A stretch of DNA of 35,421 nucleotides from Candidatus Micrarchaeaceae archaeon (GCA_050013715.1 JBEKES010000005.1:1-35421), one strand, 5' to 3'; positions 1,997 through 31,737 are shown, counted from the first letter of the stretch. The notes: generated from the letters alone by a model not told the origin. A program made the numbers and translations.

Positions 1997-2061
1997 TGAA
2001 TCACATAGGTTGATTATATATTGTATAGAGCATCTTTTTAATTTAAGTGTATAAATAAGAA

Positions 2062-2073
2062 TCCCTTGGGGTG
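2062..2073 (-). repeat. Distal copy of the tRNA-Tyr 3' end (att-like), 1-nt deletion
   Basis: tccc-ttggggtg versus tcccgttggggtg at 3235-3247. Confidence 0.7.
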
Positions 2074-2118
2074 GGTTTACAAAAATGTCAATCCACACCT
2101 TATATAAGTTTAATAGAA

Positions 2119-3096
2119 TTATTTTATGTTATATTTTTCCGCTAACTTACGAATTTCATAGGTAAATTCAATCCATTTTCTTTCTGCTTCACTTGCACTC
2201 TCTTTGCTATAATCATAAAAACCTTTTGCAGTTGTAATACCTTCTGCACCACTTTCTACCATCTTACGCATAAGTTCTGGAACCTCTGTTGAGTTACTTA
2301 GTTTTGGAAGCAACCCTTCCATAACTGTTGCATATGCAGGAATACCTGTTAGATCCATCCATCTGAATGGGCCTGCAATAGTAGCCCAATATCCTATATC
2401 ATTGCGGAAAGATCTGTCTACTGTTTCAACATCAGCTATGCCAGATTCTACCAAGTGGATTGCTTCACGGATCATTGCATACATCAAACGATTTGATATA
2501 AAACCCTGAATATCTTGTTTCAAAAGTGTTGGTTCTTTTCCACATATGTCACCTAAAGCTAATGTACGTTCAATAGTTTCGTTTGATGTCTTCTCTCCAG
2601 GAACAACTTCAAGATATCTCATAATCTCTGCTGGTTCACCCCAATGCATTCCTATAAAACGTTCTGGATGTTTCATTTCTGCTTGTAGTGTTGTTATAGG
2701 TAAACTGGAAGTATTAGATGCAATTATAGTTGTAGATGGTACAATGTCTTCCATAATTTTATACACTTCACGCTTATTGGAAAGATTCTCATCGATAGAT
2801 TCTATCAAAAAGGTCGTGCTGTCTAATTCTATAGGTGATATTAAAATATGTAAGCGGGATTGGTAATTTTTCAACATTATTTTGGGTACAATTTCTCTGC
2901 GACCAAGTTCGTATAATGTTGATTCAATATGTTTACGGCTCTCCACTGCTTTATTGGAATTTTTATCGTAAGCATGAACTTCCAAACCACGTGATAGTAA
3001 ACAAGCAGCAATGCCTCTACCCATAAATCCTACTCCAATTAAGCCAACTCGTTCATTTCTTAAATGCGTTGTATTTTCTTCTGTTTTTGTGGTCAT
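2119..3096 (-). CDS. 3-hydroxyacyl-CoA dehydrogenase family protein
   Basis: GVGFMGRGIA Rossmann motif, ASNTSSL, RFIGMHW, GFISNRL, GPFRWMDLTG. Confidence 0.92.
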   Translation of the reverse strand: MTTKTEENTTHLRNERVGLIGVGFMGRGIAACLLSRGLEVHAYDKNSNKAVESRKHIESTLYELGRREIVPKIMLKNYQSRLHILISPIELDSTTFLIESIDENLSNKREVYKIMEDIVPSTTIIASNTSSLPITTLQAEMKHPERFIGMHWGEPAEIMRYLEVVPGEKTSNETIERTLALGDICGKEPTLLKQDIQGFISNRLMYAMIREAIHLVESGIADVETVDRSFRNDIGYWATIAGPFRWMDLTGIPAYATVMEGLLPKLSNSTEVPELMRKMVESGAEGITTAKGFYDYSKESASEAERKWIEFTYEIRKLAEKYNIK

Positions 3097-3187
3097 TTTA
3101 TCGTAAGTATATTATGAATTTTTAGATATAAATAGGTTCCTACAAATTTACCGTCGATTTGACGTCATATTTTATCTAAAGTACGGG

Positions 3188-3230
3188 ATTGAACACCCAA
3201 CCTTCGACGACAAACTAAATTTGACGTCGA
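3188..3230. repeat. tRNA-Tyr T-arm copy plus inverted repeat
   Basis: attgaacacccaacct 3188-3203 is identical to 3249-3264; IR tcgacgacaaa (3204-3214) / tttgacgtcga (3220-3230), one mismatch. Confidence 0.8.
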
Positions 3231-3234
3231 GAAA

Positions 3235-3334
3235 TCCCGTTGGGGTGAATTGAACACCCAACCTGTCGCTTTCTGGCATTGTGCCATGCATTCCAAACTA
3301 CAGGCGACCGCTCTAGCCATTGAGCTACAACGGG
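3235..3334 (-). tRNA. tRNA-Tyr(GUA) with 27-nt canonical 37/38 intron (3271-3297)
   Basis: Acceptor CCCGTTG/CAACGGG, D-arm GCTC/GAGC, anticodon arm GTCGC-CT-GTA-G^A-GCGAC, T-arm GGGTG-TTCAATT-CACCC. Confidence 0.95.
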
Positions 3335-7847: not shown

Positions 7848-7918
7848 TGGGCCCGCGGAGAATCGAACTCCGGTCTTCAGCGTGTAAGGCTGACGTCGTA
7901 CCATTGGACCACAGGCCC
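7848..7918 (-). tRNA. tRNA-Val(UAC), no intron
   Basis: GGGCCTG/CGGGCCC acceptor, TCAGC-CT-TAC-AC-GCTGA, CGGAG-TTCGATT-CTCCG. Confidence 0.95.
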
Positions 7919-17629: not shown

Positions 17630-17640
17630 AGATTGTTTCT

Positions 17641-18873
17641 ATGTTAAGGCTTGGAAAGGGTAAACGCGCAATTGGAACCATAAAAAGCAGCGCAGATGAC
17701 TTCAGAGTAGAGGAGATAACAAATACGGGTCATATTCTTGAAATAGGGAAGCAATACACTCCTGAATTGCTGGGATTTAACACCCAGCAAGAGGGCAAGT
17801 TCGCTATTTTTGTAATGCAGAAGAAAGATTGGAACACAGCACAGGCATTGAAGACAATAGCAAGAAAGTTCAGAAGAGGCATAAAATCAACAAGCTTTGC
17901 AGGAACAAAAGATAGAACATCAATTTCAACGCAATTGTGCGGAATATTCGGAGTAAAACCAGAACAATTCAACGGATTCCACGTAAAGGACATAACAATT
18001 AACGGAGCATGGACGGGATCAGAAAAGATAAGGATGGGAGATCTCATCGGCAACAGGTTTGGCATAACAGTAAGGGATTTAGAATATTACGAGAATATCA
18101 AGTCCATAATAAATGAATTGGATGGATTTTTCCCCAATTATTTCGGCGAGCAGAGATTCGGCAACAGAAAGACAAACGTAGATATTGGAGTTAGCATTTT
18201 GAAAGGGGATTTCAAAAAAGCGGCATTGAATTTCCTCACGGAAACGCAGAACGAGACTAATGAAGACTCGAAGGCAGCAAGGGAAAGGCTGGCAAATGAA
18301 TTGGACTTCAACGAAGCGATGAAATACTTCCCAGAATACTTGAAATATGAAAGGATGATGCTTGAGTATCTGGCAAAGTATCCAGATAATTATGCAAACG
18401 CGATAAGGAAACTGCCAAGGTCCATATCGCTCATGTTCATACATTCAGTCGAAGACTATATATTCAACAAAGAACTTGAGGAAAGAATATCAAATAAGGA
18501 AACAGAACCGAAAAGCGGAGAAAACATATGCTATGAAAACAGCTATGGATTCCCAGATATTTCAAAAACAGGTAAATTTGATGAAAATGATAATAAAAAA
18601 GCATTCACATTGGGCAACATCATAGGTTTTGACACAGAATCAATTACAGAAATAGAGCAGAGAATACTTGAAGAGCTTGGATTGACTCTTGAATCATTTA
18701 AAGTGAAAGGCCTTAACGAACTTAATTCGAAGGGCACTTACAGAACATTGTTTGCACCTTTCAAAGATTTCTCGCACAAATATGAAGAAAATACTTGTGA
18801 AATGAATTTCTCTCTTCCTGCTGGTTCGTACGCAACAGTATTTCTTGACGAGATTCTGGAGAACAAAACATAA
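17641..18873 (+). CDS. truD: tRNA pseudouridine(13) synthase
   Basis: DFRVEE, FAGTKD, GNRF, NYFGEQRFG, FSLPAGSYAT. Confidence 0.94.
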   Translation: MLRLGKGKRAIGTIKSSADDFRVEEITNTGHILEIGKQYTPELLGFNTQQEGKFAIFVMQKKDWNTAQALKTIARKFRRGIKSTSFAGTKDRTSISTQLCGIFGVKPEQFNGFHVKDITINGAWTGSEKIRMGDLIGNRFGITVRDLEYYENIKSIINELDGFFPNYFGEQRFGNRKTNVDIGVSILKGDFKKAALNFLTETQNETNEDSKAARERLANELDFNEAMKYFPEYLKYERMMLEYLAKYPDNYANAIRKLPRSISLMFIHSVEDYIFNKELEERISNKETEPKSGENICYENSYGFPDISKTGKFDENDNKKAFTLGNIIGFDTESITEIEQRILEELGLTLESFKVKGLNELNSKGTYRTLFAPFKDFSHKYEENTCEMNFSLPAGSYATVFLDEILENKT

Positions 18874-18876
18874 GTA

Positions 18877-19101
18877 TTATTTCGACTTATTCCTTTTACT
18901 TTTAAATCTAGATAATTTCCTGTATTTTAGAATTAGGAATATGAAAAGAACAATTATGGCGCCTATGAAAAGTATAGCATAGAAGAAGCCGCTGCATACA
19001 AACAGAATCGCCAATATGGCAAGTACACTTTCAAGTAAGTCTTGACTGGTCATTGCCTTGTCAATCGCAAGTTCATTGACTATTGCTTTTTTATTTGCCA
19101 T
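18877..19101 (-). CDS. Small membrane protein
   Basis: Two hydrophobic helices and a basic tail; TATA-like element upstream. Confidence 0.6.
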   Translation of the reverse strand: MANKKAIVNELAIDKAMTSQDLLESVLAILAILFVCSGFFYAILFIGAIIVLFIFLILKYRKLSRFKSKRNKSK

Positions 19102-19197
19102 ACGTAGTTTAGAATGCGATACTATTTATCTGTTCCAGATATTAAGATCGTAATCGCCAGTATATGTATTATAAACTAAAATTAAGCACATAGTTTC

Positions 19198-19710
19198 TTA
19201 TGCTTCTTTGCGCAATGTGCTTTCAGTTTGCTGTAATGTACTGGAATCTGTATTTGTATCTACTTTGATACCAACCACAAGTGAAGCAACATCTTCAGGA
19301 TTAAGATTTGCACCAAGGCAAAATCTGTCATTACCATAATCAAAACCACTAAAACTAAAGTACAAATGCCCATTGCCTTTTCTTGTGCTTACGCTTTGAT
19401 ACCATTCAAGAGACCATATACTTTCAATTTTGGCAAGTTCACCTTTTTCATCTATCCTAAATGATTTAGTTTGTTCTAAACCTTCTCCCTCAATCCAGAA
19501 CCATTTTCCCTTCAAAATTTTCCTTAATTCAGGATCTTGTGATAAATGAATAAGTACTTCCTGCTTTGTCATTGCACGATACCCGTTACTAATTAATTCT
19601 CTCATTGAACCTGAAAAATCTTCCTTTTCTTCTAATATGCCTATTGTTTTACCTAGACTTTGTATTTCTCTAAATTGTGCTTTTCTTTCTAGTAAGCTAG
19701 TAGTTGCCAT
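19198..19710 (-). CDS. Hypothetical protein (cassette cargo)
   Basis: 170 aa ORF with GTGATAAA-ATG leader and an upstream TATA-like element. Confidence 0.7.
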   Translation of the reverse strand: MATTSLLERKAQFREIQSLGKTIGILEEKEDFSGSMRELISNGYRAMTKQEVLIHLSQDPELRKILKGKWFWIEGEGLEQTKSFRIDEKGELAKIESIWSLEWYQSVSTRKGNGHLYFSFSGFDYGNDRFCLGANLNPEDVASLVVGIKVDTNTDSSTLQQTESTLRKEA

Positions 19711-19759
19711 TTTATCACGATATAATTATATTTATTATTAAATATGTAAATGTTCCTAC

Positions 19760-20332
19760 CTAATTTACAGTTGATTTGTCATCAGATTTTATACCACTAA
19801 CTCTTCTTACGAAATCCATCCAGACACCTAATGGTCTCGCATAAAACAAATCAATAACAGCACCACCTCCCACTCCCAAAAGTGTTTTTTTGATATTTCC
19901 ACTTGTAGCAATTGCAAGTTGGGCTGTATAGATAGCACTCCAGTAAAGCTCAGTTACTGCTATATCTGCAACGAACTTTACACGTTCGCTTGTGTTTTCG
20001 TTTATTTTCATTTTTTTAAAACACCAATCCCTAAATATCCCATAGGGCCTACTTGTGAAAGTACATAACACTAAACCTAATGCTCTTTGTTTAAGTAGCT
20101 CTTTGCCACTTATATGTGCTATAAATAATTCATTTGCTCCAAATACGACAGTACTTAAACTACTAACAGAGAAGGTATCAACAAGAAAATTATAACCTTT
20201 GCTCTTTCTAATTGATGAGTCTTCACTAATTCTAAGCATTGTAAGAAAATCAAAGTTGTTAACCTTCCTAATAAATCCTCTTGATTTTGTTTCTTTATTA
20301 GTACCATTAACTTGTTTAGTTTCTATCTGCAC
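19760..20332 (-). CDS. L-alanine exporter AlaE-like membrane protein (cassette cargo)
   Basis: VDTF...E.F......R......RPYGIFRD...ADI......Y...RPLGVWMDFVRR matches the AlaE/YgaW pattern as I recall it. Confidence 0.72.
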   Translation of the reverse strand: MQIETKQVNGTNKETKSRGFIRKVNNFDFLTMLRISEDSSIRKSKGYNFLVDTFSVSSLSTVVFGANELFIAHISGKELLKQRALGLVLCTFTSRPYGIFRDWCFKKMKINENTSERVKFVADIAVTELYWSAIYTAQLAIATSGNIKKTLLGVGGGAVIDLFYARPLGVWMDFVRRVSGIKSDDKSTVN

Positions 20333-20389
20333 TTTACCACAATATAATTACAAATTAGAAGATATATATAATTAACTAAATCAAAAAAT

Positions 20390-20503
20390 GGGATCCGAAC
20401 CCTAATTTCTTAGACGTGTTACTTCGAACCGCCGGGATAGGTCTCATATTCTAAGGTTAAGAGCCTAGTCTTTGTCTTATGATAAGGAATAGGGAATTCC
20501 TAA
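20390..20503. repeat. Cassette junction S3
   Basis: T-arm copy 20390-20409 (18/20 to 24055-24074), core 20430-20440, 38-bp block 20450-20487 identical to 21121-21158. Confidence 0.9.
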
Positions 20504-21027
20504 ACAGAAAATAAAGGTGGTTCATCCAAACCACTAGCCCATTTGAGAAGTTGACTCCTTGCTTTAGCTTCAAATAAAAATGATGGTTGTGATCCTAAGG
20601 TATCAGACCATGTTTGCTTAAATTCAAGTGAATAGTATAATTCTTTTGCACTCATATTTCTTACAATATCTTCCATATCTGGTCTAATCGCTTGTAATGA
20701 TTTTATTATATAACTATGTGCTGCAACATAATTGCCTTCGTAAGCGTATAAAAGTCCAATGCTTTCTAAATCTGAACTTAAATTCAATCTAGCTTCATAG
20801 AAAGGTATGCCAGAACCATCTTTTGCTTGTTTTTTTAGTTCTTTTTTGTCTATGTCTACTGCCCTTTTTAGAGTTCCAATGCTTTTGTCTAGTTTATCTT
20901 TGTCAGTTGAAACAAGCCTGATAAGTAGTTCTCTTGCCTCTTTAAATTTACCTTTTTCTTCCAGGTTTGTTACTTCCCTATCGATTTTTTGAGGATCTAT
21001 TTTAGTGTAGAAATGTTTCGTTGGCAT
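20500..21027 (-). CDS. Hypothetical helical (TPR-like) protein (cassette cargo)
   Basis: 175 aa ORF; SIGLLYAYEGNYVAAHSYIIKSL resembles a TPR. Confidence 0.65.
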   Translation of the reverse strand: MPTKHFYTKIDPQKIDREVTNLEEKGKFKEARELLIRLVSTDKDKLDKSIGTLKRAVDIDKKELKKQAKDGSGIPFYEARLNLSSDLESIGLLYAYEGNYVAAHSYIIKSLQAIRPDMEDIVRNMSAKELYYSLEFKQTWSDTLGSQPSFLFEAKARSQLLKWASGLDEPPLFSV

Positions 21028-21078
21028 TTTTATCTTATAAACTTATGACTAATACCCTTTAATAAGTTTGTTTAGATT

Positions 21079-21173
21079 GGGTTATTAACCTTAAACTATG
21101 CGCCGGGATAGGTATTATACTCTAAGGTTAAGAGCCTAGTCTTTGTCTTATGATAAGGGATAGGGAATACTAA
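21079..21173. repeat. Cassette junction S2
   Basis: Core 21101-21111 flanked by perfect IR ttaacctta (21085-21093) / taaggttaa (21123-21131). Confidence 0.9.
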
Positions 21174-21237
21174 ATCTTTTTAATAAAAGAAGAACTTATT
21201 ACCAAACAATTATATTATATTTATTACATTTAGTATT

Positions 21238-22839
21238 ATGGGTGTAATTATACTTTTTGGAGAGCCAGGATCGGGTAAGTCAACTATAGCTAAGGAGTTA
21301 AGAAAACAAATAAAGAACTCTAAAGTTGTTGAGGCTTCAAATTTAATTTATTCTGTTTCAGTATTTTACCCATATTTACCTAATTCTACTCAAGTATTAC
21401 TACATAAACTCAAAAACCAAAATTTTGAATTAAACAGTGTAAAAACAAATAGAGAAAAAGCCAGAAATATTAATTCAAAGTTACAAAGTAAATATTCAAA
21501 GGATTTTATAGGAAAAGCTTTAGATTACCTTTATATTAGCAATAACAAGGGCACTTTAATCCTTTCTGGAGCTAGAGGCTATGATACTGCAAAATATTTC
21601 AAAAATAAAGGTTATTTTGTAGTTTTTCTGAAAACCAAACACAATATTTTGATAAATAGATTAGCTAAAAAATACAATTATTCGAAAAATATGGCGATAG
21701 AGGAACTTGAAGAAGAAGATAGATTGTATTCGACTCAAAATATAGAGAAAATAGCAGATCTTGTTATAGATACATCTAAAGCTAAACTTGGAGAAACTAC
21801 ACTTAAAATAATAAATGCTATTCCTAAAGAAATAATTGAATGTAAAAGATGTGTTAATACAAATCAAAACCCAACCATAACCTTCAATAAAAATGGTTAT
21901 TGCAATGTATGTGATTCATACTTTAAGAATTACGATAAAAAAGTACTAGCCAATGAACTCAAATTTGTAAAATCTTTTATTGGAAAGGGTAAATACAAAT
22001 GGGATGCTATGGTTGGGGTTTCTGGTGGCAAAGATAGCACAAATACTTTGTATGAAACGTTGAAAATGGGTTTTAAACCACTTGCATTTACATTTGCAAT
22101 AGGTTATTACCCTAGACATATACTACGAAGAGGGCAAAGTATAGCTAAACATTTTGGAGTAGAACATGAAGTAATTGTTGTAAAGAAGTATATGAGAAAA
22201 TGTGATCTTAAATCTTACAAGAAAACTGCTGAATTATATGATAGACCAGAATCAGAAGAACTTAAAAAGAGATTTAGGAATTTGTATATCGAAGGACGTA
22301 GACATTACTCAATAAAATGCAAACATGCATTGCCTTTCGTAAGAACGTGTCAACTTTGTAGACGTTTAGTGATACGCGGCTATTATGCAGAAGCATTAAA
22401 GCATGGAGTTAATTTAGTTATTATAGGTATAAACGAATGGGCAGGTTTTAGTCAACTTTATTCTAAAAATGAATTTAAAATGTCAGGGATCAGAAAACTC
22501 AAACCTTACAAGAATAAACCAGCAGTTTATGTTATTCATTTACCATTTTTATTACAACAAAATTCTAAAAAGGTAGCTAAAGCACTCAAAGAATTAAATT
22601 GGAAATTACCTAGAGGAGAAGAATTAATTGAATCAAATCCAAATTCTTGCTTATTTGCCAGAGCTGCACAATACAAAGCCGCAAGGATGTTAGGATTCAA
22701 TCCAGATACAACTAGACTTGCCAGAGAAGTAACTGTAGGTTTTATAAGCAAAAATCAAGCAAGAAGTGCGTTACAAAAAGTAACAAAATATAGATATTCT
22801 GTTTCTCATGTACTTAAAAAAGCAAAAATAATAATGTAA
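21238..22839 (+). CDS. Fusion of a P-loop NMP/dephospho-CoA-kinase-like domain and a PP-loop N-acetyl-sugar amidotransferase-like domain (cassette cargo)
   Basis: GEPGSGKS; then CKRC, CNVC, SGGKDS, CQLC. Confidence 0.75.
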   Translation: MGVIILFGEPGSGKSTIAKELRKQIKNSKVVEASNLIYSVSVFYPYLPNSTQVLLHKLKNQNFELNSVKTNREKARNINSKLQSKYSKDFIGKALDYLYISNNKGTLILSGARGYDTAKYFKNKGYFVVFLKTKHNILINRLAKKYNYSKNMAIEELEEEDRLYSTQNIEKIADLVIDTSKAKLGETTLKIINAIPKEIIECKRCVNTNQNPTITFNKNGYCNVCDSYFKNYDKKVLANELKFVKSFIGKGKYKWDAMVGVSGGKDSTNTLYETLKMGFKPLAFTFAIGYYPRHILRRGQSIAKHFGVEHEVIVVKKYMRKCDLKSYKKTAELYDRPESEELKKRFRNLYIEGRRHYSIKCKHALPFVRTCQLCRRLVIRGYYAEALKHGVNLVIIGINEWAGFSQLYSKNEFKMSGIRKLKPYKNKPAVYVIHLPFLLQQNSKKVAKALKELNWKLPRGEELIESNPNSCLFARAAQYKAARMLGFNPDTTRLAREVTVGFISKNQARSALQKVTKYRYSVSHVLKKAKIIM

Positions 22840-22893
22840 TCAAATTTTTATTTATTGATTCCACAAATTTGTAATTAGATTAATTCGAAAATA

Positions 22894-22925
22894 GGATATG
22901 AACCTTAAATCTATCGCCGGGATAG
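22894..22925. repeat. Cassette junction S1
   Basis: ggatatgaaccttaa (13/15 to the tRNA T-arm) followed by core cgccgggatag 22915-22925. Confidence 0.85.
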
Positions 22926-23070
22926 AGCGGTAGTACCAGAGGGGCTATGTCTCATAAGTTTAGACATAGTATTACCATATTTAATAAGAAGCCATATTTT
23001 GTATCAATTCACAATGCATATGACTTAATGTACAAACGTATCTTGAAAATAAAAATATGTAAATTCTTAA

Positions 23071-23970
23071 TTATTTTCTTAAACTCATTTTCCATATATT
23101 CATTCTTTTTGTTGCTTCATCAACTTCTCTTATTTTATCTGGATCAGTAAATAGTTTTCTTGTAGAAGATAAATCAGAAACAAGCTCGCCCATAGAGTAT
23201 ATTTCATAAACAAATCCTAACCGTGTAAAGAATTCGTGGCTTTCTTCACGATCTGTAAAGTAAAAAGATTCTAAATCTCTACTGAACTTTCTAGTCCAAT
23301 TCTTTTTTTGTTCTTCTGATCTGGCTCCCAGCTTATTCCATTCTGCCATCTCCTCTTTATGATGAATATCTGGTGTGATGTAGAATCCACCATATTTCTC
23401 TAAAAGCATCTTTGCATTTATAGCTATTTTTTCTTTTGTTGGATGTGGATAATAAGTATAAAGTCCCTCATGAACGACAGCTATTGGAGCATGTATGCTT
23501 AAGTTTTGTGTAATGTTTTCAAATCCTTCGCCCGAAATTGCATCAAATCCAACAAAAGCAGGCATTCTACCTTGCTTAGTTAAAAGCTTCTTTGCATAGC
23601 ACCACATCTGTTCTAATGCTTCTGGATCTTGATCAGTATGCACGAAATTCCATTGTGGATTAATTATGCCCCTTAATGATCTGCCTGCTGCAAATTCAAC
23701 AACCTGATCAACTCCACTTGATTTTATCAATGTATCAATCGCTTTGTAGCGTGCCTCAAACCAAGGAATTCTTGTTTCTATGTTGCCCATTATGGCTTTG
23801 TCTTGCTCATATGCTTCTTCTGCTCTAATTAATTTAGCAAATTCCGCAGCTAAAGGGATATCAGAAAAACTCCTAAAATAAGTAGTATATAAGTTTGTAT
23901 TTTGAACTACTTTTGAAGGTTTTTCAATTTCTGCAGATGCGGTACTCTGTTTATTATTTGATATATTCAT
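23071..23970 (-). CDS. Class I SAM-dependent methyltransferase-like protein (LCM/COG3315-like; cassette cargo)
   Basis: FEARYKAID, QVVEFAAG, HTD, VHEGLYTY. Confidence 0.7.
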   Translation of the reverse strand: MNISNNKQSTASAEIEKPSKVVQNTNLYTTYFRSFSDIPLAAEFAKLIRAEEAYEQDKAIMGNIETRIPWFEARYKAIDTLIKSSGVDQVVEFAAGRSLRGIINPQWNFVHTDQDPEALEQMWCYAKKLLTKQGRMPAFVGFDAISGEGFENITQNLSIHAPIAVVHEGLYTYYPHPTKEKIAINAKMLLEKYGGFYITPDIHHKEEMAEWNKLGARSEEQKKNWTRKFSRDLESFYFTDREESHEFFTRLGFVYEIYSMGELVSDLSSTRKLFTDPDKIREVDEATKRMNIWKMSLRK

Positions 23971-24044
23971 TTTACCACATTTAAATTTGCTTTATTAGAT
24001 ATTTATACCTTGCGTAGGCTTTTACAGTCGATTTGTCGTCGGAC

Positions 24045-24141
24045 CGCCGGGATAGGGATTTGAACCCTAATTTCCTTGCGGAAACCAGATCTCGAGTTTC
24101 GCCTATTTATCTGGCGCGTTACCGGATTCCGCCATCCCGGC
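24045..24141 (-). tRNA. tRNA-Ser(CGA) with 13-nt non-canonical 30/31 intron (24098-24110)
   Basis: GCCGGGA/TCCCGGC-G, long variable arm TTTCC-GCAA-GGAAA, spliced arm CCAGA-CT-CGA-GA-TCTGG; BHB helix CGCC/GGCG with AGA and AAA bulges. Confidence 0.92.
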
Positions 24142-24204
24142 ATGTGTAACACTTAAATATGAGTGATTAATAATACTTTAAATGTATAGATAATTCGTGA
24201 ATAA

Positions 24205-24516
24205 ATGATTTATATAAAAATCCACAACACAGACAATGGAGACATTGTTGCCATGTGTGATTCTTCGCTCATAGACAAGGTATTGGCAGAGGGAGAGGTG
24301 GAAATAAACATAAAGGACTATTCTGAGTTTTATAAAGGAGAATTAGTCGAAGCAGGCAAAGTCCCAAAGATGATAAATTTAGGGCATCTTTTTTCTGCAA
24401 ACATTGTGGGCAAGGAATCAGTTGATGCGGCAATAAAATGCAGCATAATAGACAAGAACAACGTATTGAAAGTCAATAAAATTCCTTACGCCAACGCATT
24501 CAGATTGAAGTACTAA
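24205..24516 (+). CDS. DUF424 family protein
   Basis: IVAMCD..L, FYKGE, ANIVGKESV..A, IPYA. Confidence 0.8.
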   Translation: MIYIKIHNTDNGDIVAMCDSSLIDKVLAEGEVEINIKDYSEFYKGELVEAGKVPKMINLGHLFSANIVGKESVDAAIKCSIIDKNNVLKVNKIPYANAFRLKY

Positions 24517-24863
24517 TTTTTCTCTTCAGTTAGATCAATAATAGTCTGCGCTATGTCGCCATTGTTTTTTTCTAACGCTTCTTTTATGTGCTCTTTATCT
24601 TCAATACCAGTTCTCTCCGCAACAAGCGACACATCTTCATCAGTTATTGTAGGTGCAGTATTCTTCTGGACTTCTTTTATATCGCCGCTTATCTGAAAGC
24701 TAATTGTTCCCTGTGCTTCTATCTTCGTTATTTGCGGATTGTCTATTATTATGTTGACTTCGCTGGTTTCTATCACAACTCTCTCCGCAGGTATCTCCGA
24801 TGATTTGATACCCATTTTTGCCATTAGGTTTCGCATCGTCCTAGGATCCATATTCGGCATCAT
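24513..24863 (-). CDS. nac: Nascent polypeptide-associated complex protein
   Basis: MDPR.M..LM.KMGI, FQISG, UBA-like DVSLVAE...GDIAQTI. Confidence 0.92.
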   Translation of the reverse strand: MMPNMDPRTMRNLMAKMGIKSSEIPAERVVIETSEVNIIIDNPQITKIEAQGTISFQISGDIKEVQKNTAPTITDEDVSLVAERTGIEDKEHIKEALEKNNGDIAQTIIDLTEEKN

Positions 24864-24977
24864 AAGTATCACAAATTACTAGTAGTAATTTACCATTTAA
24901 TTATTATTAAGGTTTCTTTTGGATAGTTTTTTTACAAATATTATTTTAAATATTGATTGATAATTAATTCTGATATT

Positions 24978-25382
24978 ATGGATAAAAAAGTCAAAACCAA
25001 GAACATAAGGCAATCTGTAGTTTTTGATGCAGAGCCGAAAGAGGTTTATGAGCTAATAATGGATTCGAAGAAGCACGTTGCATTTTCAGAGGGTGCCGCA
25101 AAAATTAGCAGGAAGGTTGGAGGGAATTTCACAGCCTATGACGGTTGGATAACCGGCAAAAACATAAGAATAGCTCCGAATAAGCTGATAGTGCAGAAAT
25201 GGAGGGGCGACGACTGGCCAAAGGGGCATTATTCCATTGTAACGTTTAAATTCATAAAAAAAGGAAAGGGCACAAAGCTTGAATTTACTCAGAAAGGAGT
25301 TCCTTCAGATAAATACAAGGACATAACAAGCGGATGGAAGGAGCATTACTGGGAAAAGATGAAGAATTATTTGAAGGAGTAG
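24978..25382 (+). CDS. SRPBCC/AHSA1-like protein
   Basis: EVYELIMD, VGGNF, IVQKWR, GWKEHYWEKMK. Confidence 0.85.
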   Translation: MDKKVKTKNIRQSVVFDAEPKEVYELIMDSKKHVAFSEGAAKISRKVGGNFTAYDGWITGKNIRIAPNKLIVQKWRGDDWPKGHYSIVTFKFIKKGKGTKLEFTQKGVPSDKYKDITSGWKEHYWEKMKNYLKE

Positions 25383-25383
25383 C

Positions 25384-27129
25384 TCACTTGCCGTATATAT
25401 CTGTCTTTCCCCTTAGTGCTGATGCTATTGCACCCAGCAGCGAAAGTGCTGCGGCAAAGTACAGTACTATTTTTATGCCCTGAGTAAATGATTGGGATAT
25501 CAGCATTGGGAAGAATGTTGTTCCTGTTATTGTGGCTGCCTGCTTTGCCGTAAGATTTGAAAGCAATGATTGAGGTAACAGAGTCTTCAATGGATTATAG
25601 CCAAGAAATGCTGCGAACAATGCAGATGTAGGAGGAATCTTCGACGCTGCAAGCGCCCGCGCACTGTTTACACCTTGACCTACAAGGCCATTGTATATCG
25701 ATGTCGACATGGTAGCAGTCAATCCAGTTACAAGCAACGTGAAGAATATTATTATGCTGAACATCATTGACATGTAACCGAATGTCCTTGCCATTCCTGA
25801 ACCTGCTCCCCGCTGCTCGGGGGGCAATGAATTCATTATGCTTGCGGCATTTGGCGAGAGGAACATTCCCTGTCCTATACCCATTAGAAGAGTTATGGGT
25901 ATGAAGTAGAATATGTTGAAATTAGTTGGAAGTGTGGAAAGCCATAGGAACGCAACAACGTTTATGAGCATTCCTCCAGTTGCCAATAGCGTAGGTCCGT
26001 ATTTGTCAGATAATTTGCCGGATATGGGTCCAAATATCAGGAATGCGATTGTCAAAGGCAATAGATAAAGCGCTGCTACGAATGGTGTTCTCTCAAAGCT
26101 CACCCCATGCAAGGGAAGCCATATGCCCTGCAGCCATATTATTATCATGAACTCAAGGCCCCATCTTGCTACCCCAGCAAGGAAATTGCTTGACATGGCA
26201 AGGGAAAATGCCTTGTGCTTGAAGAGCTTCAAATTAAACATTGGGTCTTCCACTCGCAACTCTATGGCAATAAATGCAAAGAATAGGATAATTCCAGTTA
26301 TCAATCCGCCTAGTACGAACGGATTGCTCCAGCCAGTTTGCGAAGTGCCGTAAGGTATAAGCGAGTATGTTATTGATATCAGTATAAAGGCAAGAGCCAA
26401 TGCAAAGGTAATGTTTCCAGGTATGTCCAGCTTTCTGCCTTTCTTTATTGTAGCTATTTCATGCAATGCAAGATATGACCATATAGCTCCTACTATTCCT
26501 ATGGGAACGCTTATGAGGAAGATCAGATGCCAGTCTATTGCTGCAAGAACTCCTCCCACAAGAAGGCCTATGGCGCTTCCTCCTGCAAATGCTACTCCGT
26601 TTATTCCCAGTGCCATTCCTCGTTCATTGTGAGGGAACGCATCGGTAAGCATTGCGGCGCTGTTTGCTATAAGGAAGCTGCCGCCAAATGCTTGAAGCAA
26701 TCTTAGTATTATTATTGCAAGCGCGCCATTCGTCCCGTGAATCAAATAGGATGAAGCATAAATCAGCGTTGAAGTAAGTGCAAATATCATGAATCCGAAG
26801 TTGTAGAGCTTTACTCTTCCGTAGGTATCTGCGAATCGTCCTATGGAAACTATCAGCACCGCTGACATTATTATATAACCGAGAAGAATCCATAGAAGAA
26901 GACCTATATTTGAAGGTATTAGAGGATTTACACCCAAACCAGTGAATATTGCTGGCAATGAGATTAGAACAATAGAGCTGTCAATCGAAGCCATAAGAGA
27001 GCCAAGTGTTGTATTGGAAAGCACAATCCATTTGTAATTCACACCGAACTTCTTCTCCTTTTCGCGTGCGCTTTCATCGTACTTGAGAGCATCCTTGCCA
27101 CTAACTTCAACGGGTTCAAAGCTCTCCAT
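25384..27129 (-). CDS. MFS transporter (DHA2/EmrB-like)
   Basis: IDSSIVLISLP, GRFADTYGR, ERGMALG, WHLIFLISVPIG, GKLSDKYG. Confidence 0.92.
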   Translation of the reverse strand: MESFEPVEVSGKDALKYDESAREKEKKFGVNYKWIVLSNTTLGSLMASIDSSIVLISLPAIFTGLGVNPLIPSNIGLLLWILLGYIIMSAVLIVSIGRFADTYGRVKLYNFGFMIFALTSTLIYASSYLIHGTNGALAIIILRLLQAFGGSFLIANSAAMLTDAFPHNERGMALGINGVAFAGGSAIGLLVGGVLAAIDWHLIFLISVPIGIVGAIWSYLALHEIATIKKGRKLDIPGNITFALALAFILISITYSLIPYGTSQTGWSNPFVLGGLITGIILFFAFIAIELRVEDPMFNLKLFKHKAFSLAMSSNFLAGVARWGLEFMIIIWLQGIWLPLHGVSFERTPFVAALYLLPLTIAFLIFGPISGKLSDKYGPTLLATGGMLINVVAFLWLSTLPTNFNIFYFIPITLLMGIGQGMFLSPNAASIMNSLPPEQRGAGSGMARTFGYMSMMFSIIIFFTLLVTGLTATMSTSIYNGLVGQGVNSARALAASKIPPTSALFAAFLGYNPLKTLLPQSLLSNLTAKQAATITGTTFFPMLISQSFTQGIKIVLYFAAALSLLGAIASALRGKTDIYGK

Positions 27130-27198
27130 ATGCTAAAAGTTTGTTGCAACAGTTATAAATTCTGATGCGTAGGAAAAGAGAAGACAAGGAAAATTATC

Positions 27199-27654
27199 TC
27201 AACCGTATTTCTTGTTGTAAAAATCAAGTGCCTTTTGGGCCAAAGCCTCATCGGCATTTACTCCGAGTGATCCTACCAGCTTAACAATATTTTTTATGCT
27301 ATGTTCTTTTCCTAATATTACCAAAAAGTATATGGAGTAAACATATATCACAACATTTTCATTATTTACGTCTAGTAAAACATTCATTAGCTTTTCGTCT
27401 GGTTTTATTCCAATCGCATTCAATACTTTCGACATATTTTCTGTATTGATGTCCCTGCCGAGCAAATTAAGAAATCCGGAAAGATACAGATAAGGCTGTA
27501 TTTTCTTCTCATTGATGTGCTTGATTACAGTTTCATCATCCAATAATTTCCCGGCACCATCCAGTAATACATCGGAAGAAACAGTAGATATTTGCTCGAT
27601 TATGCTTTTGAACAACTGCATGTATATTTTCTTTTTGCTTTCCTCACTATCCAT
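27199..27654 (-). CDS. Protein with two tandem aP1/L12-like N-terminal domains
   Basis: YLY...L...G.DINTENMSKVLNAIGIKPDE and YVY...L...GKE.S..NIVKLVGSLGVNADE resemble the archaeal P1 N-terminus. Confidence 0.65.
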   Translation of the reverse strand: MDSEESKKKIYMQLFKSIIEQISTVSSDVLLDGAGKLLDDETVIKHINEKKIQPYLYLSGFLNLLGRDINTENMSKVLNAIGIKPDEKLMNVLLDVNNENVVIYVYSIYFLVILGKEHSIKNIVKLVGSLGVNADEALAQKALDFYNKKYG

Positions 27655-27749
27655 CAAATCTTAGAAGATTTCTAATGGAAGATTTAATAATGTTGCTTTT
27701 AGTAATGGACTCGCGGACTTACGAGAGTGGGTTTGTAGTAGAAACATAG

Positions 27750-27977
27750 TCAAATAGCATTAAACGATGCTATATTCCGCTTAGGATTTCTTAAGTTTTT
27801 TGCTTCTTCTCGAAGTGCCACCAAACCAAATTCGCCATGTACACGAATGGGTCTTAAAAATCTTTTAGTGTTTTCATCCGATGGTCCTTTGATTACTCTC
27901 CTAACATGCCTTAGAGCTTTCCTTATATCACTGATTTTTCTTGCCATGTCATTTCGCGTAGTTAGAGTATCAGCCAT
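27750..27977 (-). CDS. Small basic hypothetical protein (cassette cargo)
   Basis: 75 aa ORF, GTGGTAATTT-ATG leader, TTTAAATA upstream. Confidence 0.6.
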   Translation of the reverse strand: MADTLTTRNDMARKISDIRKALRHVRRVIKGPSDENTKRFLRPIRVHGEFGLVALREEAKNLRNPKRNIASFNAI

Positions 27978-28063
27978 AAATTACCACTAATTAGATATTG
28001 CTTGTGTTTTTATTTAAAACTTTATGTAATGGGAGTGAATTTGCCTTCCCAGATAACTGAAAA

Positions 28064-28176
28064 TGGACTCTGCGTACCTCTCACATCACGTAGGAATTAA
28101 CTTATGGTATAAAATGACATACTTTGATACCTTTTGATATATTCTATTGAAAGATACTTATAAATATTTCCTGAAA
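28064..28176 (+). repeat. Core plus conserved cassette left end (copy 1) containing a TATA box
   Basis: Aligns with 29838-29953; ttataaata at 28158. Confidence 0.92.
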
Positions 28177-28197
28177 CATATTATTTTGAGTGAGAAA

Positions 28198-28755
28198 ATG
28201 GCAACAACAAAACCTATATTCGAAAAAGATATACCAGTAGGTGCAAGCGTTATAATGCGAAAATATCCTAGAAATAGTGATGACATGGCGACTTATGTTT
28301 TCGGGACGTATTTTGATGATTTGAGAGCTGTTCGTGTGCTATACAGAAAAAATGAACATATTATTAATTTTGCAATAGAACCTGAGGATCACGAAAAATA
28401 CTTTCCAGGAGTAGTTCTTGAAGCAGATACACGCCATCCGAAAATAATATTAGCAAAATCAGCTGGTGTTGGTTCATTTAATCATGATTCATCTCAGGGT
28501 TCATTATATATTTCAGCACATCAGCTAATGTTTCATTTTCCTAAGAATGATTCACCAGTAGTCCAACTAGTTGATTTCTTAAGAAGCCTGCAAGATCGAC
28601 AGATAGATCAACTTCAAAGTGAACATACTCTACAGCAACAGGCAGGGCTGGCATTAAATCTAAAAATAGTTAGTACTTTGATAAATTTTGTATCGAGTGA
28701 AGTAGAAACACATCAAAAAGACACTATTAGTTTAATTAAAAGAGAAGTTGAGTAG
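28198..28755 (+). CDS. Hypothetical protein (cassette cargo)
   Basis: ATG 28198 (MATTKP) preferred, because TTG 28147 lies inside the repeated end, upstream of the TATA box. Confidence 0.7.
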   Translation: MATTKPIFEKDIPVGASVIMRKYPRNSDDMATYVFGTYFDDLRAVRVLYRKNEHIINFAIEPEDHEKYFPGVVLEADTRHPKIILAKSAGVGSFNHDSSQGSLYISAHQLMFHFPKNDSPVVQLVDFLRSLQDRQIDQLQSEHTLQQQAGLALNLKIVSTLINFVSSEVETHQKDTISLIKREVE

Positions 28756-28787
28756 CTAAGATTTCTTGTTTTTTCTTATTTGCATCC

Positions 28788-28833
28788 ATCCCACCCTGAT
28801 TCTCGAGGTGACACATCGAAACTGGACTCTGCG
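28788..28833 (+). repeat. Conserved cassette right end plus core (copy 1)
   Basis: 28788-28822 matches 30498-30532 at 27/35, followed by tggactctgcg. Confidence 0.88.
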
Positions 28834-29045
28834 TTCTTAGGGCTTTTGTTTCTGATTCTAATCCTACATTAAAATAGCATAACTTCGGAATAATATACAC
28901 TACTATTAATAAAAATAGTACAGTGGGCTTTGTAGGAAAACTCTGACTTTTCCAACAAAATAATTAGTTTTCCGACAAGTTGCAGTTCTATACGAAATAG
29001 AATAAATGTTCTTATATTATGAACAATAAAATGATATTGATAAAA

Positions 29046-29567
29046 ATGGTAGTAACTAAGCCAAACCCCCGTAAAATTTTAATAACTGGACTACCAGGAA
29101 GCGGAAAAAGTAGGTTGCATAAATTCCTTCAAAGTAAAGGATACAATTCTGTAGATGCTGATGATACATTTTTATCATATAATGGAAAGAAATTACCTGT
29201 TGGTGCAAGTATGAAGTGGCTCTTACAAAATCCACCAATGTGGAATGAAGAGAAACTTGGTGCCATTTTTGAAAAGAATAAAGACAAAGACTTATATGTA
29301 GTTGGAGTAGCACCAAATATGTTAAAATTCCTCAAGCATTTTGATGAGGTATATTATCTTGATGCAGATAGAGAAACACTAACATATAGGCTAAAAGCAC
29401 AAAGAAGTAACCCCTACGGAACTACAAAAGCTCAGAGAAGATTAGCAATATTAACCCTGCCTGTTGCAGTCATTGCATCAAAAATTGCAGGATTCAAATT
29501 CGTTGATGCATCTTTACCAACAGAACAAATATTCAATAAAATTTCAAACTCTAACGAAAATGCCTGA
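29046..29567 (+). CDS. P-loop kinase (shikimate/adenylate-kinase-like; cassette cargo)
   Basis: ITGLPGSGKS, VDAD, FDEVYYLDA....L..RL..R.SNPYG. Confidence 0.78.
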   Translation: MVVTKPNPRKILITGLPGSGKSRLHKFLQSKGYNSVDADDTFLSYNGKKLPVGASMKWLLQNPPMWNEEKLGAIFEKNKDKDLYVVGVAPNMLKFLKHFDEVYYLDADRETLTYRLKAQRSNPYGTTKAQRRLAILTLPVAVIASKIAGFKFVDASLPTEQIFNKISNSNENA

Positions 29568-29837
29568 ATACTTATTAAACTTTCTTACTTAATGCTTTAG
29601 AGAATGAAGTATTCATTTCTTCTACATCAGAATAGAATAGTGTAGCTATGGTGATAGTAATCATTACCGATGCAAAAAAGAGATATGTTTCAACGTCAGC
29701 ACCACAATATGTTCAAATTGCTTCAATAGATATAAAAGCTCCATAACAGATAAACCGAACTTAAAGTACAATAGACTTAAAGTCCATTTTGACGAGTTTT
29801 TGATGAGTTTGTCGTCTAATAAATGTGACCTAGTTTC

Positions 29838-29953
29838 TGGACTCTGCGTACTTCTCACATCACGTAGGAATTAACTTATGACATAATTTGATATACGTTG
29901 ATACCTTTTGATATCACCTGAATTTGAAAGATATCTATAAATATTTCCTGAAA
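29838..29953 (+). repeat. Core plus conserved cassette left end (copy 2)
   Basis: First 43 nt differ from 28064-28106 at one position; both end in tataaatatttcctgaaa. Confidence 0.92.
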
Positions 29954-29966
29954 GAGAATATGTTGA

Positions 29967-30431
29967 GTGATATGTTTGCCAGAAAAAGAAGTTCCTCAAA
30001 AAGCTAGACACGAGATATTGTTTAGTTCTAGATATAAAGAGACGGCCTTTTTATCAAATTTTTACCCATGCGTAATAAATATAGATGGTAAGACATATGC
30101 TAGTGTAGAGCATTATTATCAAAGTCAAAAAACTTTAGACCCAACATTAAGTGAATGGATGAGAAATGCACCTTCTGCACTTTATGTAAAGAAACTTACA
30201 GAAGTTTTGAGACGTAAAGATGTAAGAACTGACTGGCAAGAGGTCAAAGTAGGAATCATGAGAAGAGCAATACGTGCTAAGTTTACTCAAAACGAAAATC
30301 TAAAAAAGAAATTACTCGATACTGGTGATGCTGTATTGCATGAAGATGTTCCTGATGAACTATTTTGGGGAATGGCAGGACAGGATATGCTTGGCAAAAT
30401 GTTAATGGAATTAAGAGAAGAACTAAGATAA
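29967..30431 (+). CDS. NADAR (YbiA-like) family protein (cassette cargo)
   Basis: FLSNFY, SVEHYYQSQK, R.DW...K..IM..AI.AKFTQ, LLDTG, FWG, G.DMLGKMLMELREEL. Confidence 0.9.
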   Translation: MICLPEKEVPQKARHEILFSSRYKETAFLSNFYPCVINIDGKTYASVEHYYQSQKTLDPTLSEWMRNAPSALYVKKLTEVLRRKDVRTDWQEVKVGIMRRAIRAKFTQNENLKKKLLDTGDAVLHEDVPDELFWGMAGQDMLGKMLMELREELR

Positions 30432-30532
30432 ATTTAATATTTTTCTCAAAATCTTTTTCTTTAATTTTCATAAAATATTTACCTTTTAAAAGAGAGAATC
30501 GCACCCCAACTCTCGAGGTGTAACGTCGGAAC

Positions 30533-30643
30533 TGGACTCTGCGGGGATCGCACCCGCGACCTTCCGCTTTTTTGGGTTTACTTTTGATTAATTTTCAAAA
30601 GTTTACTTGCAAAGCGGACGCTCTACTACTGAGCCAAGAGCCC
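30533..30643 (-). tRNA. tRNA-Ala(UGC) with 39-nt canonical intron (30569-30607)
   Basis: GGGCTCT/AGAGTCC with G3:U70, TCCGC-TT-TGC-A^A-GCGGA, T-loop TGCGATC; intron hairpin ACTTTTGA/TCAAAAGT. Confidence 0.93.
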
Positions 30644-30676
30644 ATATAAGTAGAATGATATTTCACATTAAGATTA

Positions 30677-31075
30677 TTAACGCTTCTTTTTGCCCTTTGA
30701 TTTCTGTGCCTTTTGGGGCTTTGCCTTTGATGCCTTTTTCATTGGCGCTTGCTTTTTAGCATTAGCTACCTGCTTAGCTGTAAGCTCTGCCTTTGCGTTC
30801 TTGCTCCTTATGCTGTTGATTATGTTCTTTTTGGTATTCTGCGCTGTGAGGCTTTCTATTATTTCAAGATCCCTATGTGCATTCTTGTTGAGGTTCAACT
30901 CATCAAGCATGTTATCTACTACGTTGTCGTTGACAGTTTCTGAATCTTTTGAAGTATTGGTAAGCGCTGCATTCTCTATGTCGCTTTTCTTTAATACTTC
31001 CTTTATCGCATTCAATTCTTTGAGCTTGGCAAGTTCGTTTGCGTATTTGCCACTGCTTCTTTTTTTGCTTTTCAT
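30677..31075 (-). CDS. Lys/Ala-rich hypothetical protein
   Basis: 132 aa ORF with a basic low-complexity tail. Confidence 0.65.
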   Translation of the reverse strand: MKSKKRSSGKYANELAKLKELNAIKEVLKKSDIENAALTNTSKDSETVNDNVVDNMLDELNLNKNAHRDLEIIESLTAQNTKKNIINSIRSKNAKAELTAKQVANAKKQAPMKKASKAKPQKAQKSKGKKKR

Positions 31076-31179
31076 TCCCAGCTACCCTTTTCACTACCCT
31101 TTCGATGCTTTATTTAATGTATAAATTATTATGCTTTCTGGTTGGTTAAGGAATTGTAATTCCAAATCGCAGCTTTACT

Positions 31180-31737
31180 TTAGAACATTTTCATTTTTCT
31201 TCCTCTGTTAGTGGGCTTGTAAACTGGTTGCTGCTTCTCCTGTTGTGGAGGAATTGCGCTTCCATTGCGTTGCTCGTAGCCGCGCAGGAATTCTGAATGA
31301 GGAGTATCTTTAAATTTCCCGTCGCTTTGTCTTTCCCTTGCCCTATCTGATGGAAAACGCCCCTCAGGCTGCGTTTTGTCCTTTGCAGGTATAACACCCA
31401 TTTCAACCAGTTTTCTAGAGATATGCTCGCTTCCGAACATGGCCGATTGGTGCAGTGCATTAAGTCCGAATTTCCTGCTCGTCAAATTTAAATCAAAACC
31501 AGGCACGGATATGAATTCACCGAACATCGCATTTCTTATACCATCATCCTTAACTTTAATTATCTCAAAGAATATTGGATTTCCCTCATCTGTAAAGCCA
31601 TTTGCAAGTGATGTGTTTTTATCAGCATCAGGAGAATGCAGCAGTTCGTGAACTTTAGCTAAGTCTGGAATCCTCACGGCTAAGATTAATTGCTCTCTTC
31701 CGGTTGTATGCAAATATGATAAAGGTTCAACAGCCAT
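31180..31737 (-). CDS. Ankyrin-repeat-like protein
   Basis: DLNLTSRKFGLNALHQSAMFGSEHISRKLVEMG; DEGNPIFFEII. Confidence 0.65.
   Translation of the reverse strand: MAVEPLSYLHTTGREQLILAVRIPDLAKVHELLHSPDADKNTSLANGFTDEGNPIFFEIIKVKDDGIRNAMFGEFISVPGFDLNLTSRKFGLNALHQSAMFGSEHISRKLVEMGVIPAKDKTQPEGRFPSDRARERQSDGKFKDTPHSEFLRGYEQRNGSAIPPQQEKQQPVYKPTNRGRKMKMF

Follow-up and report, generated by a model that had tools for sequence, protein, structure and literature searches.

The window analysed here, a stretch of 35,421 nucleotides (nt) that forms contig C5 of the assembly of a Candidatus Micrarchaeaceae archaeon (72 contigs, 976,605 bp, rated 92.9% complete), carries two arrays of small gene units, which lie behind a tRNA-Ser(CGA) gene and behind a gene that we read as tRNA-Ala(UGC), and a single unit of the same kind behind tRNA-Tyr. 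The units are separated by direct copies of the last 11 nt of the adjacent tRNA gene, and the evidence supports the view that these repeats are recombination junctions at an insertion hotspot at the tRNA ends. We consider it probable, on balance, that the arrays were formed by tandem accretion, i.e., by the serial insertion by a tyrosine integrase of small circles that lack an integrase gene at the 3' ends of tRNA genes. The initial annotation of this stretch had presented the arrays as a candidate new system. This was too strong, because elements that accrete in tandem at tRNA attachment sites are already known, and so are derivatives without an integrase.

Exact copies of the core of the Ser array, CGCCGGGATAG, are located at 20430, 21101, 22915 and 24045, where 24045 is the end of tRNA-Ser, and exact copies of that of the Ala array, TGGACTCTGCG, at 28064, 28823, 29838 and 30533, where 30533 is the end of tRNA-Ala. 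Each 11-mer has these four occurrences in the entire assembly, all of them within the window, downstream of its tRNA and on the same strand. The internal copies listed in the initial annotation, their direct orientation and their specificity to the adjacent tRNA were thus confirmed. Of the degenerate copies that it had listed, the one at 27706-27715 matches the Ala core at ten of the 11 positions with one base absent and adjoins a backbone gene, and the single copy of the tRNA-Tyr end, previously placed at 2062, is found at 2061-2073 (13/14, one base absent); both were read from the sequence. The proposed Ser core copy at 19155-19165 matches at 8/11 positions, which is no better than chance, and was rejected. 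The built-in shuffle test, which admits up to two mismatches, is weak on its own. The six hits of the Ser 11-mer were equalled in two of 100 shuffles, and the four hits of the Ala 11-mer were equalled in 55 of 100, which is not significant and would favour a chance origin. The case for the repeats therefore rests on their exactness and position. A control set was composed of the 3'-terminal 11-mers of the 32 tRNA genes detected by ARAGORN, for which an exact match was sought within 15 kb downstream on the same strand; 11 of the 32 had at least one such copy. No copies of these 11-mers were found upstream or on the opposite strand, and the 5'-end 11-mers of the same 32 genes had no copies at any position. 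Assembly artefacts had been named as a possible objection from the start. The repeats are not artefacts of this kind, because contigs of another peat sample span the arrays and bridge the cores with 0 differences and because an independent metagenome contig (L083) has an identical Ser array. With exact copies that all lie downstream on the same strand, an origin of the repeats by chance or by misassembly deserves practically no credence.

The same architecture was found at the tRNA genes for Arg(GCG), Asn, Ala(CGC), Phe, Leu(GAG), Asp, Glu and Ile and at one more tRNA gene on contig C70. Across the genome, 31 intervals lie between exact cores; they range from 362 to 3696 bp, with a median of 848 bp, and sum to approximately 33.5 kb, which is 3.4% of the assembly. 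Their GC content is 0.27-0.40 compared to 0.383 for the genome, and they hold 47 open reading frames (ORFs) of at least 50 aa, which are found on both strands within arrays. The Arg array comprises 13 intervals when contigs C29 and C6 are taken together. The end of C29 (11739, L028) and the start of C6 (66, L027) carry the same junction, with approximately 70 nt in common and two differences, and judging by this overlap the array probably continues from the one contig into the other. In the window, six units lie between exact cores and three more have a degenerate or unproven outer end. The nine units that had been described initially therefore stand as far as their one or two unrelated genes and the lack of a recombinase are concerned (none was found in the Pfam scan of the cassette ORFs or in a profile search of the genome), but only six of them are bounded by exact cores.

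A Pfam scan of 40 ORFs from the other arrays and of the cassette ORFs of the window revealed a varied cargo: three PIN domains, a ParE-like protein, a DUF4258/DUF2283 pair, three AAA_18 kinase-like proteins, NADAR, an AlaE-like protein, an HD domain, ankyrin repeats, an S51 peptidase, a serine hydrolase and a methyltransferase fragment. No site-specific recombinase was detected among these ORFs by Pfam. Apart from NADAR and the methyltransferase fragment, searches of the cassette genes with PADLOC and NCBIfam contributed little. One cassette of the Arg array contains a DDE transposase of 327 aa of the insertion sequence (IS) type (L027 1152-2135, contig C6), which brings this cassette to 2.2 kb. 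The cassette gene 23071-23970 is distributed patchily across the order, being present in 15 of 201 genomes and nine of 60 genera, and in three of the nine loci that were fetched, its homologue is located 26-1244 nt behind tRNA-Gln or tRNA-Glu, which hints at movement between tRNA platforms.

A comparison with relatives showed that these tRNA genes are sites of insertion polymorphism. TruD is present in 31 of the 31 related genomes, and six congener loci were fetched. The backbone TruD / tRNA-Ser / DUF424 / NAC / AHSA1 / tRNA-Ala is conserved in the congeners, with both tRNA ends identical. The gap between tRNA-Ser and TruD measures 6 bp, 58 bp and approximately 0.8, 1.5 and 2.1 kb in five of them, and in the window it is 5.2 kb. 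In L005, the sixth congener, 136 bp separate tRNA-Ser from a conserved backbone gene of 74 aa, a distance that takes up 4.9 kb of the gap in the window. None of the nine cassette proteins of the window had a match at the six congener loci, and behind tRNA-Ala, one extra Ala core was found in two relatives. A DNA search of 19100-30700 against 60 genomes of the family returned tRNAs and backbone genes only among the matches listed, outside of which there were 61 further matches. At the tRNA-Tyr locus, the dehydrogenase gene of the window is missing in all three relatives examined, and the site is empty in one congener, where the tRNA abuts an aminoacyl-tRNA synthetase gene. Additionally, among 43 metagenome loci that share the 23-nt end of tRNA-Ser, many of which are short, eight have a further core copy (up to one mismatch) 0.5-3.6 kb downstream, three have an integrase immediately behind the tRNA and two are empty, with TruD 60 nt behind the tRNA. 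The sites in relatives were thus empty or differently filled, and an identical content was not seen in them.

No enzyme that could have made these junctions was found in the genome itself. The profiles PF00589, PF16795, PF00239, archaeal XerA, TnpB and Cas1 had no match in this 92.9%-complete assembly, and a tblastn search for remnants of 13 integrases of relatives found none in it. A tyrosine recombinase of any type, XerA included, was not found across the whole genome (G000), so the search for one that had been suggested initially was negative. Neither int(N) nor int(C) pseudogenes border the units, since there is no integrase fragment anywhere in the genome or the window. Among the 31 related genomes, where the present one counts as a miss, PF00589 was detected in 18, and it was detected in eight of the ten congeners (of the two without it, one is G003). 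The relatives' integrase genes that were examined, 13 in number, are all located immediately behind a tRNA gene and in the same direction, and they fall into a long and a short family. The long family (397-457 aa) has a SAM-like N-domain and a C-terminal zinc ribbon; in L018 and L016 the zinc-ribbon motif follows the catalytic domain (weak Pfam DZR matches). The idea that the long family is self-splitting was rejected: its frame is open through the tRNA end in 5/6 cases, but TATA-like boxes and an ATG, as read from the sequence, follow the core. An upstream ATG at the distal repeat was found in one of two elements, and we treated the long family as conventional. An integrase-less unit of approximately 0.84 kb with a 142-aa ORF was observed behind an intact tRNA-Asp gene in one relative (L017, G005 C23, ~16587-17499), and beyond it there are a displaced, nearly half-length tRNA-Asp fragment and then a long-family integrase. 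This order indicates that, at L017, a cassette was inserted after an integrase-bearing element.

The short family differs in that its frame, followed backwards, stays open across the tRNA end, that several copies lack an ATG behind the tRNA, and that, in all four elements in which a distal repeat was found, the same frame runs past that repeat to an ATG 22-43 codons upstream. The family is common in Micrarchaeota, with 246 relatives in the species collection, and 72 of the 80 best loci come from Micrarchaeota or Micrarchaeaceae. Among these 80 further loci, the best of the 246, 74 had at least 400 nt upstream; 60 of the 74 have a same-strand tRNA that ends no more than 400 nt upstream, and in 56 of these 60 the frame stays open across the tRNA end. 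Nine of the other 14 loci were read, and at least seven of the nine contain a tRNA or tRNA end that ARAGORN had missed; in two of those seven (L153 and L159), an unsplit-looking gene reads through a tRNA-end-like stretch. The short family has the architecture of the SSV-type "suicidal" integrases, with attP predicted inside the ORF and the gene split on integration. By its sequence, it matches PF00589 only and not PF16795, and its nearest solved relative is XerA-like (4a8e, E 1.3e-5). A description of this family in Micrarchaeota was not found in the literature.

The arms beside the cores share motifs with these integrase-bearing elements. A CGACGACAAATCGAC-type box is located behind the cores in the present genome as well as behind several tRNA genes without an array, and it is often followed by a copy of the T-arm of the adjacent tRNA. 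The pattern CGAC[GA]NCAAA[TC] has 16 matches in the genome, of which ten directly follow a tRNA end or core copy; one more is found at a distance of 170 nt from a tRNA. The split ORF of the short integrases in relatives starts immediately behind the tRNA; the P' arms of the short integrases contain (T/A)CGACGACA boxes in 4/7 and T-arm-like GGGTTCAAATCC copies in several, and in the short-family elements a similar box also precedes the distal repeat. The expectation that a tyrosine integrase family targets tRNA ends is thus borne out by its occurrence in relatives and by its arm motifs, which flank the junctions here. Moreover, the arms are modular; one P-arm family is common to the Ser (twice), Asp and Arg cores of this genome and to an Arg core in a congener. 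Within the window, junction repeats of 68 nt in the Ser array and 77 nt in the Ala array link the cassettes of each array.

According to the mechanism that we favour, the repeats would be the crossover cores of attachment sites at the tRNA 3' ends. Small DNA circles, each with one or two cargo genes and an attachment site, would be put into the tRNA end one by one by a tyrosine integrase. The attachment site would consist of a P arm, a 10-11-nt core equal to the tRNA end and a P' arm, in which CGACGACAAA-type boxes are often accompanied by a T-arm copy. Each insertion would rebuild the tRNA gene and displace the older inserts outward, so that the newest cassette would be found beside the tRNA and the most decayed core farthest from it, and an internal junction would be made up of the P arm of the newer cassette, the core and the P' arm of the older one. 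Serial insertion in this order fits the data, because exact cores lie near the tRNA genes, the outer cores are decayed and the arms are shared in the observed pattern. The most likely source of the enzyme is the short family, members of which lie behind tRNA genes in related Micrarchaeota. Its gene would be intact only on the free circle and split on integration. For this reason, its action on the cassettes, which would move as units, would have to be in trans, with the enzyme supplied by an episome or by a co-resident element outside the assembly. A broader proposal, which we advance tentatively and rate at somewhat less than an even chance, is that an integron-like cassette economy exists at the tRNA genes of Micrarchaeota, in which cassettes are both inserted and excised by a self-splitting episomal tyrosine integrase. 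A cassette would then be composed of its cargo, a 10-11-nt tRNA-end core and short arm boxes, and the arrays would be stable because, unlike in tandem autonomous copies, no integrase gene would ever be rebuilt. At least 31 cassettes at 11 tRNA genes, approximately 3.4% of the assembly, would have been built in this way in the present genome.

Several observations weigh against serial insertion of small cassettes, and some of them favour a different history. With no integrase here to act, the arrays may be fossil. The contigs of four peat runs, mapped on 17500-31500, showed no core-to-core joint and no circle junction, even though contigs miss rare forms, and neither an empty site nor an excision joint of the same strain was seen in them; loose contig ends at 24045 and 30533 match the locus of another species (L053). 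A free, intact short integrase was not found on viral contigs, where 31 weak matches had up to 35% identity over 64 residues. No second core copy was found at the three loci at which a homologue of the cassette gene 23071-23970 stands behind a tRNA. The strict box pattern, frequent as it is here, was present in only two of the ten congeners, which means that this arm type is enriched in the present lineage. The P-arm hairpin, which was considered as a mimic of the T-arm or as an attC-like structured site, was rejected, as only seven of 32 junctions fold beyond shuffles (z < -1.5) and the mean z is -0.9. Finally, the cores measure 10-11 nt here compared to 14-60 nt of tRNA identity in the integrase-bearing short-family elements.

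The last difference can also be accommodated by gene capture followed by decay, in which the units would be deletion remnants of a larger integrase-bearing plasmid or provirus that was trapped when its self-splitting integrase gene was cut, that then lost the integrase and most of its genes and that never moved as small cassettes. Relatives hold integrase-bearing elements of 5-16 kb at like sites, sometimes followed by a small integrase-less unit, and the position of the arm boxes coincides exactly with the start of the short integrase ORF in relatives, as would be expected from a deletion remnant. The loss of the integrase after integration has been described for archaeal elements in the available part of PMC8371274, and the genome has neither an integrase nor a helper, nor were circles seen in contigs. 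On the other hand, none of the 31 units has a detectable integrase fragment, although in most of them the cores are still exact and the arms recognisable on either side. Decay would require approximately 31 independent deletions, each of which took the whole gene and spared the 25-60 nt beside the core. The uniformly small units, with genes that are mostly intact and have their own promoters, and the arm families that are common to different tRNA cores do not align with such a process either. We therefore regard decay as unlikely, while giving it serious weight, and retain serial insertion as the preferred explanation. The short, direct repeats of 10-11 nt and the DDE transposase in the Arg array could also be taken as signs of target-site duplication by a transposase or a casposase-like enzyme at tRNA ends. 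This is very improbable: no terminal inverted repeats of at least 14 nt were found at the cassette ends, the genome has no Cas1 and its sole transposase is an IS inside a cassette. Furthermore, the junction arms match those of the tyrosine-integrase elements of relatives, in which the integrase-bearing elements share longer tRNA segments.

The likeness to integrons noted in the initial annotation holds for the outcome, as the arrays consist of ordered, small, mostly single-gene cassettes without a recombinase at one platform, with a cargo rich in toxin-antitoxin and unknown genes. In the available text of PMC11389934, clusters of attC sites lacking integron-integrases (CALINs) are treated as mobilised in trans, and integrons and CALINs have been reported in archaeal metagenome-assembled genomes, with arrays defined by attC and IntI, in the accessible portion of 10.1101/2022.02.06.479319, the main text of which contains no mention of tRNA, DPANN or Micrarchaeota. 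A true integron or CALIN, served by IntI, can nevertheless be set aside with near certainty. The genome has no tyrosine recombinase, and the junction cores differ between the arrays, each being identical to the end of its adjacent tRNA. The sites are tRNA-end cores with arms as opposed to the attC hairpins of integrons, which are imperfect inverted repeats with a core conserved from cassette to cassette, and the platform is found at many tRNA genes instead of one attI. Integron cassettes are mostly promoterless and co-oriented behind one promoter, whereas those described here occur in both orientations and have their own promoters, as suggested by TATA-like boxes seen by eye only upstream of several cassette genes. 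The arrays are integron-like in outcome and are not an integron.

Among the known kinds, the arrays come closest to tandem accretion at tRNA attachment sites and to the capture of genes by self-splitting integrases. With attachment sites on both sides and no integrase, the units also resemble the cis-mobilisable elements (CIMEs) of streptococcal families of integrative and conjugative elements, which are non-autonomous, integrase-less, flanked by functional att sites and dependent on the integrase of a related element. CIMEs differ in that they occur in bacteria, in small numbers per genome, derive from conjugative elements and do not form arrays of a dozen single-gene units. Gene capture by SSV-type (type I) integrases was reportedly treated by She et al. 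in 2001. As in that type, the ORF of the relatives' short family extends across the attachment site and is split on integration, and inserted genes are trapped behind the tRNA; the SSV-type enzymes belong to PF16795, whereas the short family belongs to PF00589 and is XerA-like. In the part of Badel et al. 2020 (PMC7253208) that was available, suicidal integrases are described from geothermal archaea and in five cases from Methanosarcinales, and tandem integrations are said never to have been observed for the elements that carry them. The hosts in the present case are peat Micrarchaeota, and tandem arrays are the norm. Archaeal elements are themselves known to integrate in tandem, according to the accessible text of PMC8371274, and tycheposons of Prochlorococcus are described, as far as 10.1101/2020.12.28.424599 was available, as building islands by successive integrations at one tRNA with partial tRNAs in between. 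An integrase at the tRNA end, older elements pushed outward and partial tRNAs dispersed over a variable island are features that such islands and tandem elements, in these same portions of the sources, have in common with the present arrays. The differences lie in scale and content. The units are approximately 0.4-3.7 kb with one or two genes compared to tandem elements of 5-20 kb with integration and replication modules, and all 31 lack an integrase, even in fragments, whereas each tandem integrative element encodes its own, as the elements in relatives do. The core is 10-11 nt, and the arrays occur at 11 of the 32 detected tRNA genes in a genome of less than 1 Mb.

Little is known about the ways in which DPANN archaea, with their tiny genomes and their dependence on hosts, acquire accessory genes. 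The arrays offer a concrete route for such gain, in which 11 of 32 tRNA genes would serve as docking platforms for single-gene packets, such as toxin-antitoxin pairs, kinases and NADAR. The link to a self-splitting integrase family provides a testable enzyme and defined sites, and the arrays bear on a gap stated in the available part of PMC7253208, namely that tandem integrations were never seen for suicidal-integrase elements. If the cassettes do move in trans, they would represent a second, independent solution to the task of integrons. In the literature on integrases and tRNA attachment sites of Micrarchaeota and DPANN, no title or abstract on such arrays was found.

The coordinates of the three loci in the window are collected in Table 1.

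Table 1. tRNA genes, core copies, arm box and cassettes of the Ser, Ala and Tyr loci in the window
Feature	Position	Strand	Description
tRNA-Ser(CGA) with intron	24044..24142	-	Last 11 nt are the core of the first array; 3' end identical in six relatives' loci
Arm box CGACGACAAATCGACTG	24025..24041	-	Immediately behind the tRNA-Ser end; pattern match
Ser core copy 1, exact 11 nt	22915..22925	-	
Ser cassette 1	22926..24044	-	One gene, 23071-23970, 299 aa; no family found
Ser core copy 2, exact	21101..21111	-	Start of the 68-nt junction repeat in common with 20430, 94% identity
Ser cassette 2	21112..22914	+	Gene 21238-22839, 533 aa; P-loop kinase-like domain and PP-loop ATPase-like domain
Ser core copy 3, exact	20430..20440	-	Followed, in the tRNA direction, by a copy of the tRNA T-arm, 20390-20409, 90% identity
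Ser cassette 3	20441..21100	-	Gene 20500-21027, 175 aa; weak TPR match
Ser array, putative outer block	19102..20429	-	Genes 19198-19710 (no family found) and 19760-20332 (AlaE-like)
tRNA-Ala(UGC) with intron, own reading	30533..30643	-	Last 11 nt are the core of the second array; tRNA by Rfam
Ala core copy 1, exact	29838..29848	-	Start of the 77-nt junction repeat in common with 28064, 91% identity
Ala cassette 1	29849..30532	+	NADAR-domain gene 29967-30431
Ala core copy 2, exact	28823..28833	-	Downstream arm like the arm behind tRNA-Ala, 46 nt at 83% identity
Ala cassette 2	28834..29837	+	P-loop kinase-like gene 29019-29567, Pfam AAA_18
Ala core copy 3, exact	28064..28074	-	
Ala cassette 3	28075..28822	+	Gene 28147-28755, 202 aa; no family found
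Ala cassette 4	27706..28063	-	75-aa ORF 27750-27977; outer end is the degenerate core, beside backbone gene 27199-27657
tRNA-Tyr with intron	3235..3334	-	Behind it, arm boxes and a repeat of 16 nt of its T-arm; Rfam, ARAGORN
tRNA-Tyr single cassette	2061..3234	-	3-hydroxyacyl-CoA dehydrogenase gene 2119-3096 (Pfam); outer end is the degenerate core 2061-2073

The kinase-like gene 21238-22839 was matched by Pfam AAA_18 and QueC, and TIGR03573 stayed under its cutoff, while the gene 29967-30431 was assigned to NADAR by Pfam (5e-28), to PDC-M42C by PADLOC and to TIGR02464 by NCBIfam. The outer block at 19102..20429 has no counterparts at the loci of relatives, and the putative outer boundary of the Ser array was set from the conserved backbone gene 18877-19101. 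The backbone gene 27199-27657, which borders the Ala array, is present in the relative L001.

The window contains four tRNA genes, every one of them on the minus strand, and an archaeal large-subunit ribosomal RNA gene at its end (Rfam); the public runs that contain its sequence are labelled as peat metagenomes. At the gathering threshold, Rfam matched rRNA and tRNAs only, namely tRNA-Tyr (3235-3334), tRNA-Val (7848-7918) and a tRNA at 30533-30643; tRNA-Ser was not among the matches. With its default settings, ARAGORN detected tRNA-Val alone in the window, and tRNA-Ser(CGA) at 24044-24142 and the tRNA introns were seen solely when ARAGORN allowed introns. ARAGORN labelled 30533-30643 as Cys(GCA). 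Our own reading, based on the anticodon loop TTTGCAA followed by the intron and on the G3:U70 pair, is tRNA-Ala(UGC), in agreement with the initial annotation. The same Cys miscall was repeated for the orthologous gene in the loci of five relatives. In two peat runs, contigs with a depth above that of this organism's contigs omit 39 nt of the tRNA-Ala intron (window 30566-30606); they probably represent the tRNA-Ala gene of another organism, with a shorter intron or none.

An element of 60-80 nt at the starts of cassette genes (28147-28210 and others) was considered as a cassette signal and was rejected, as it also precedes genes on ordinary contigs. Its consensus (TATAAATATTTCC ... GAGTGA ... 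ATG) was found at 28147-28210 and 29924-29987 and also on contigs C19, C7 and C6 of the same genome (G000), and it is probably the standard promoter and leader of the organism. A gene encoding a transporter of the major facilitator superfamily (25384-27129) is located between the backbone genes AHSA1 and 27199-27657. It is not present at the loci of relatives, has matches elsewhere in other genomes and is an insertion with normal GC content and no recognised core.

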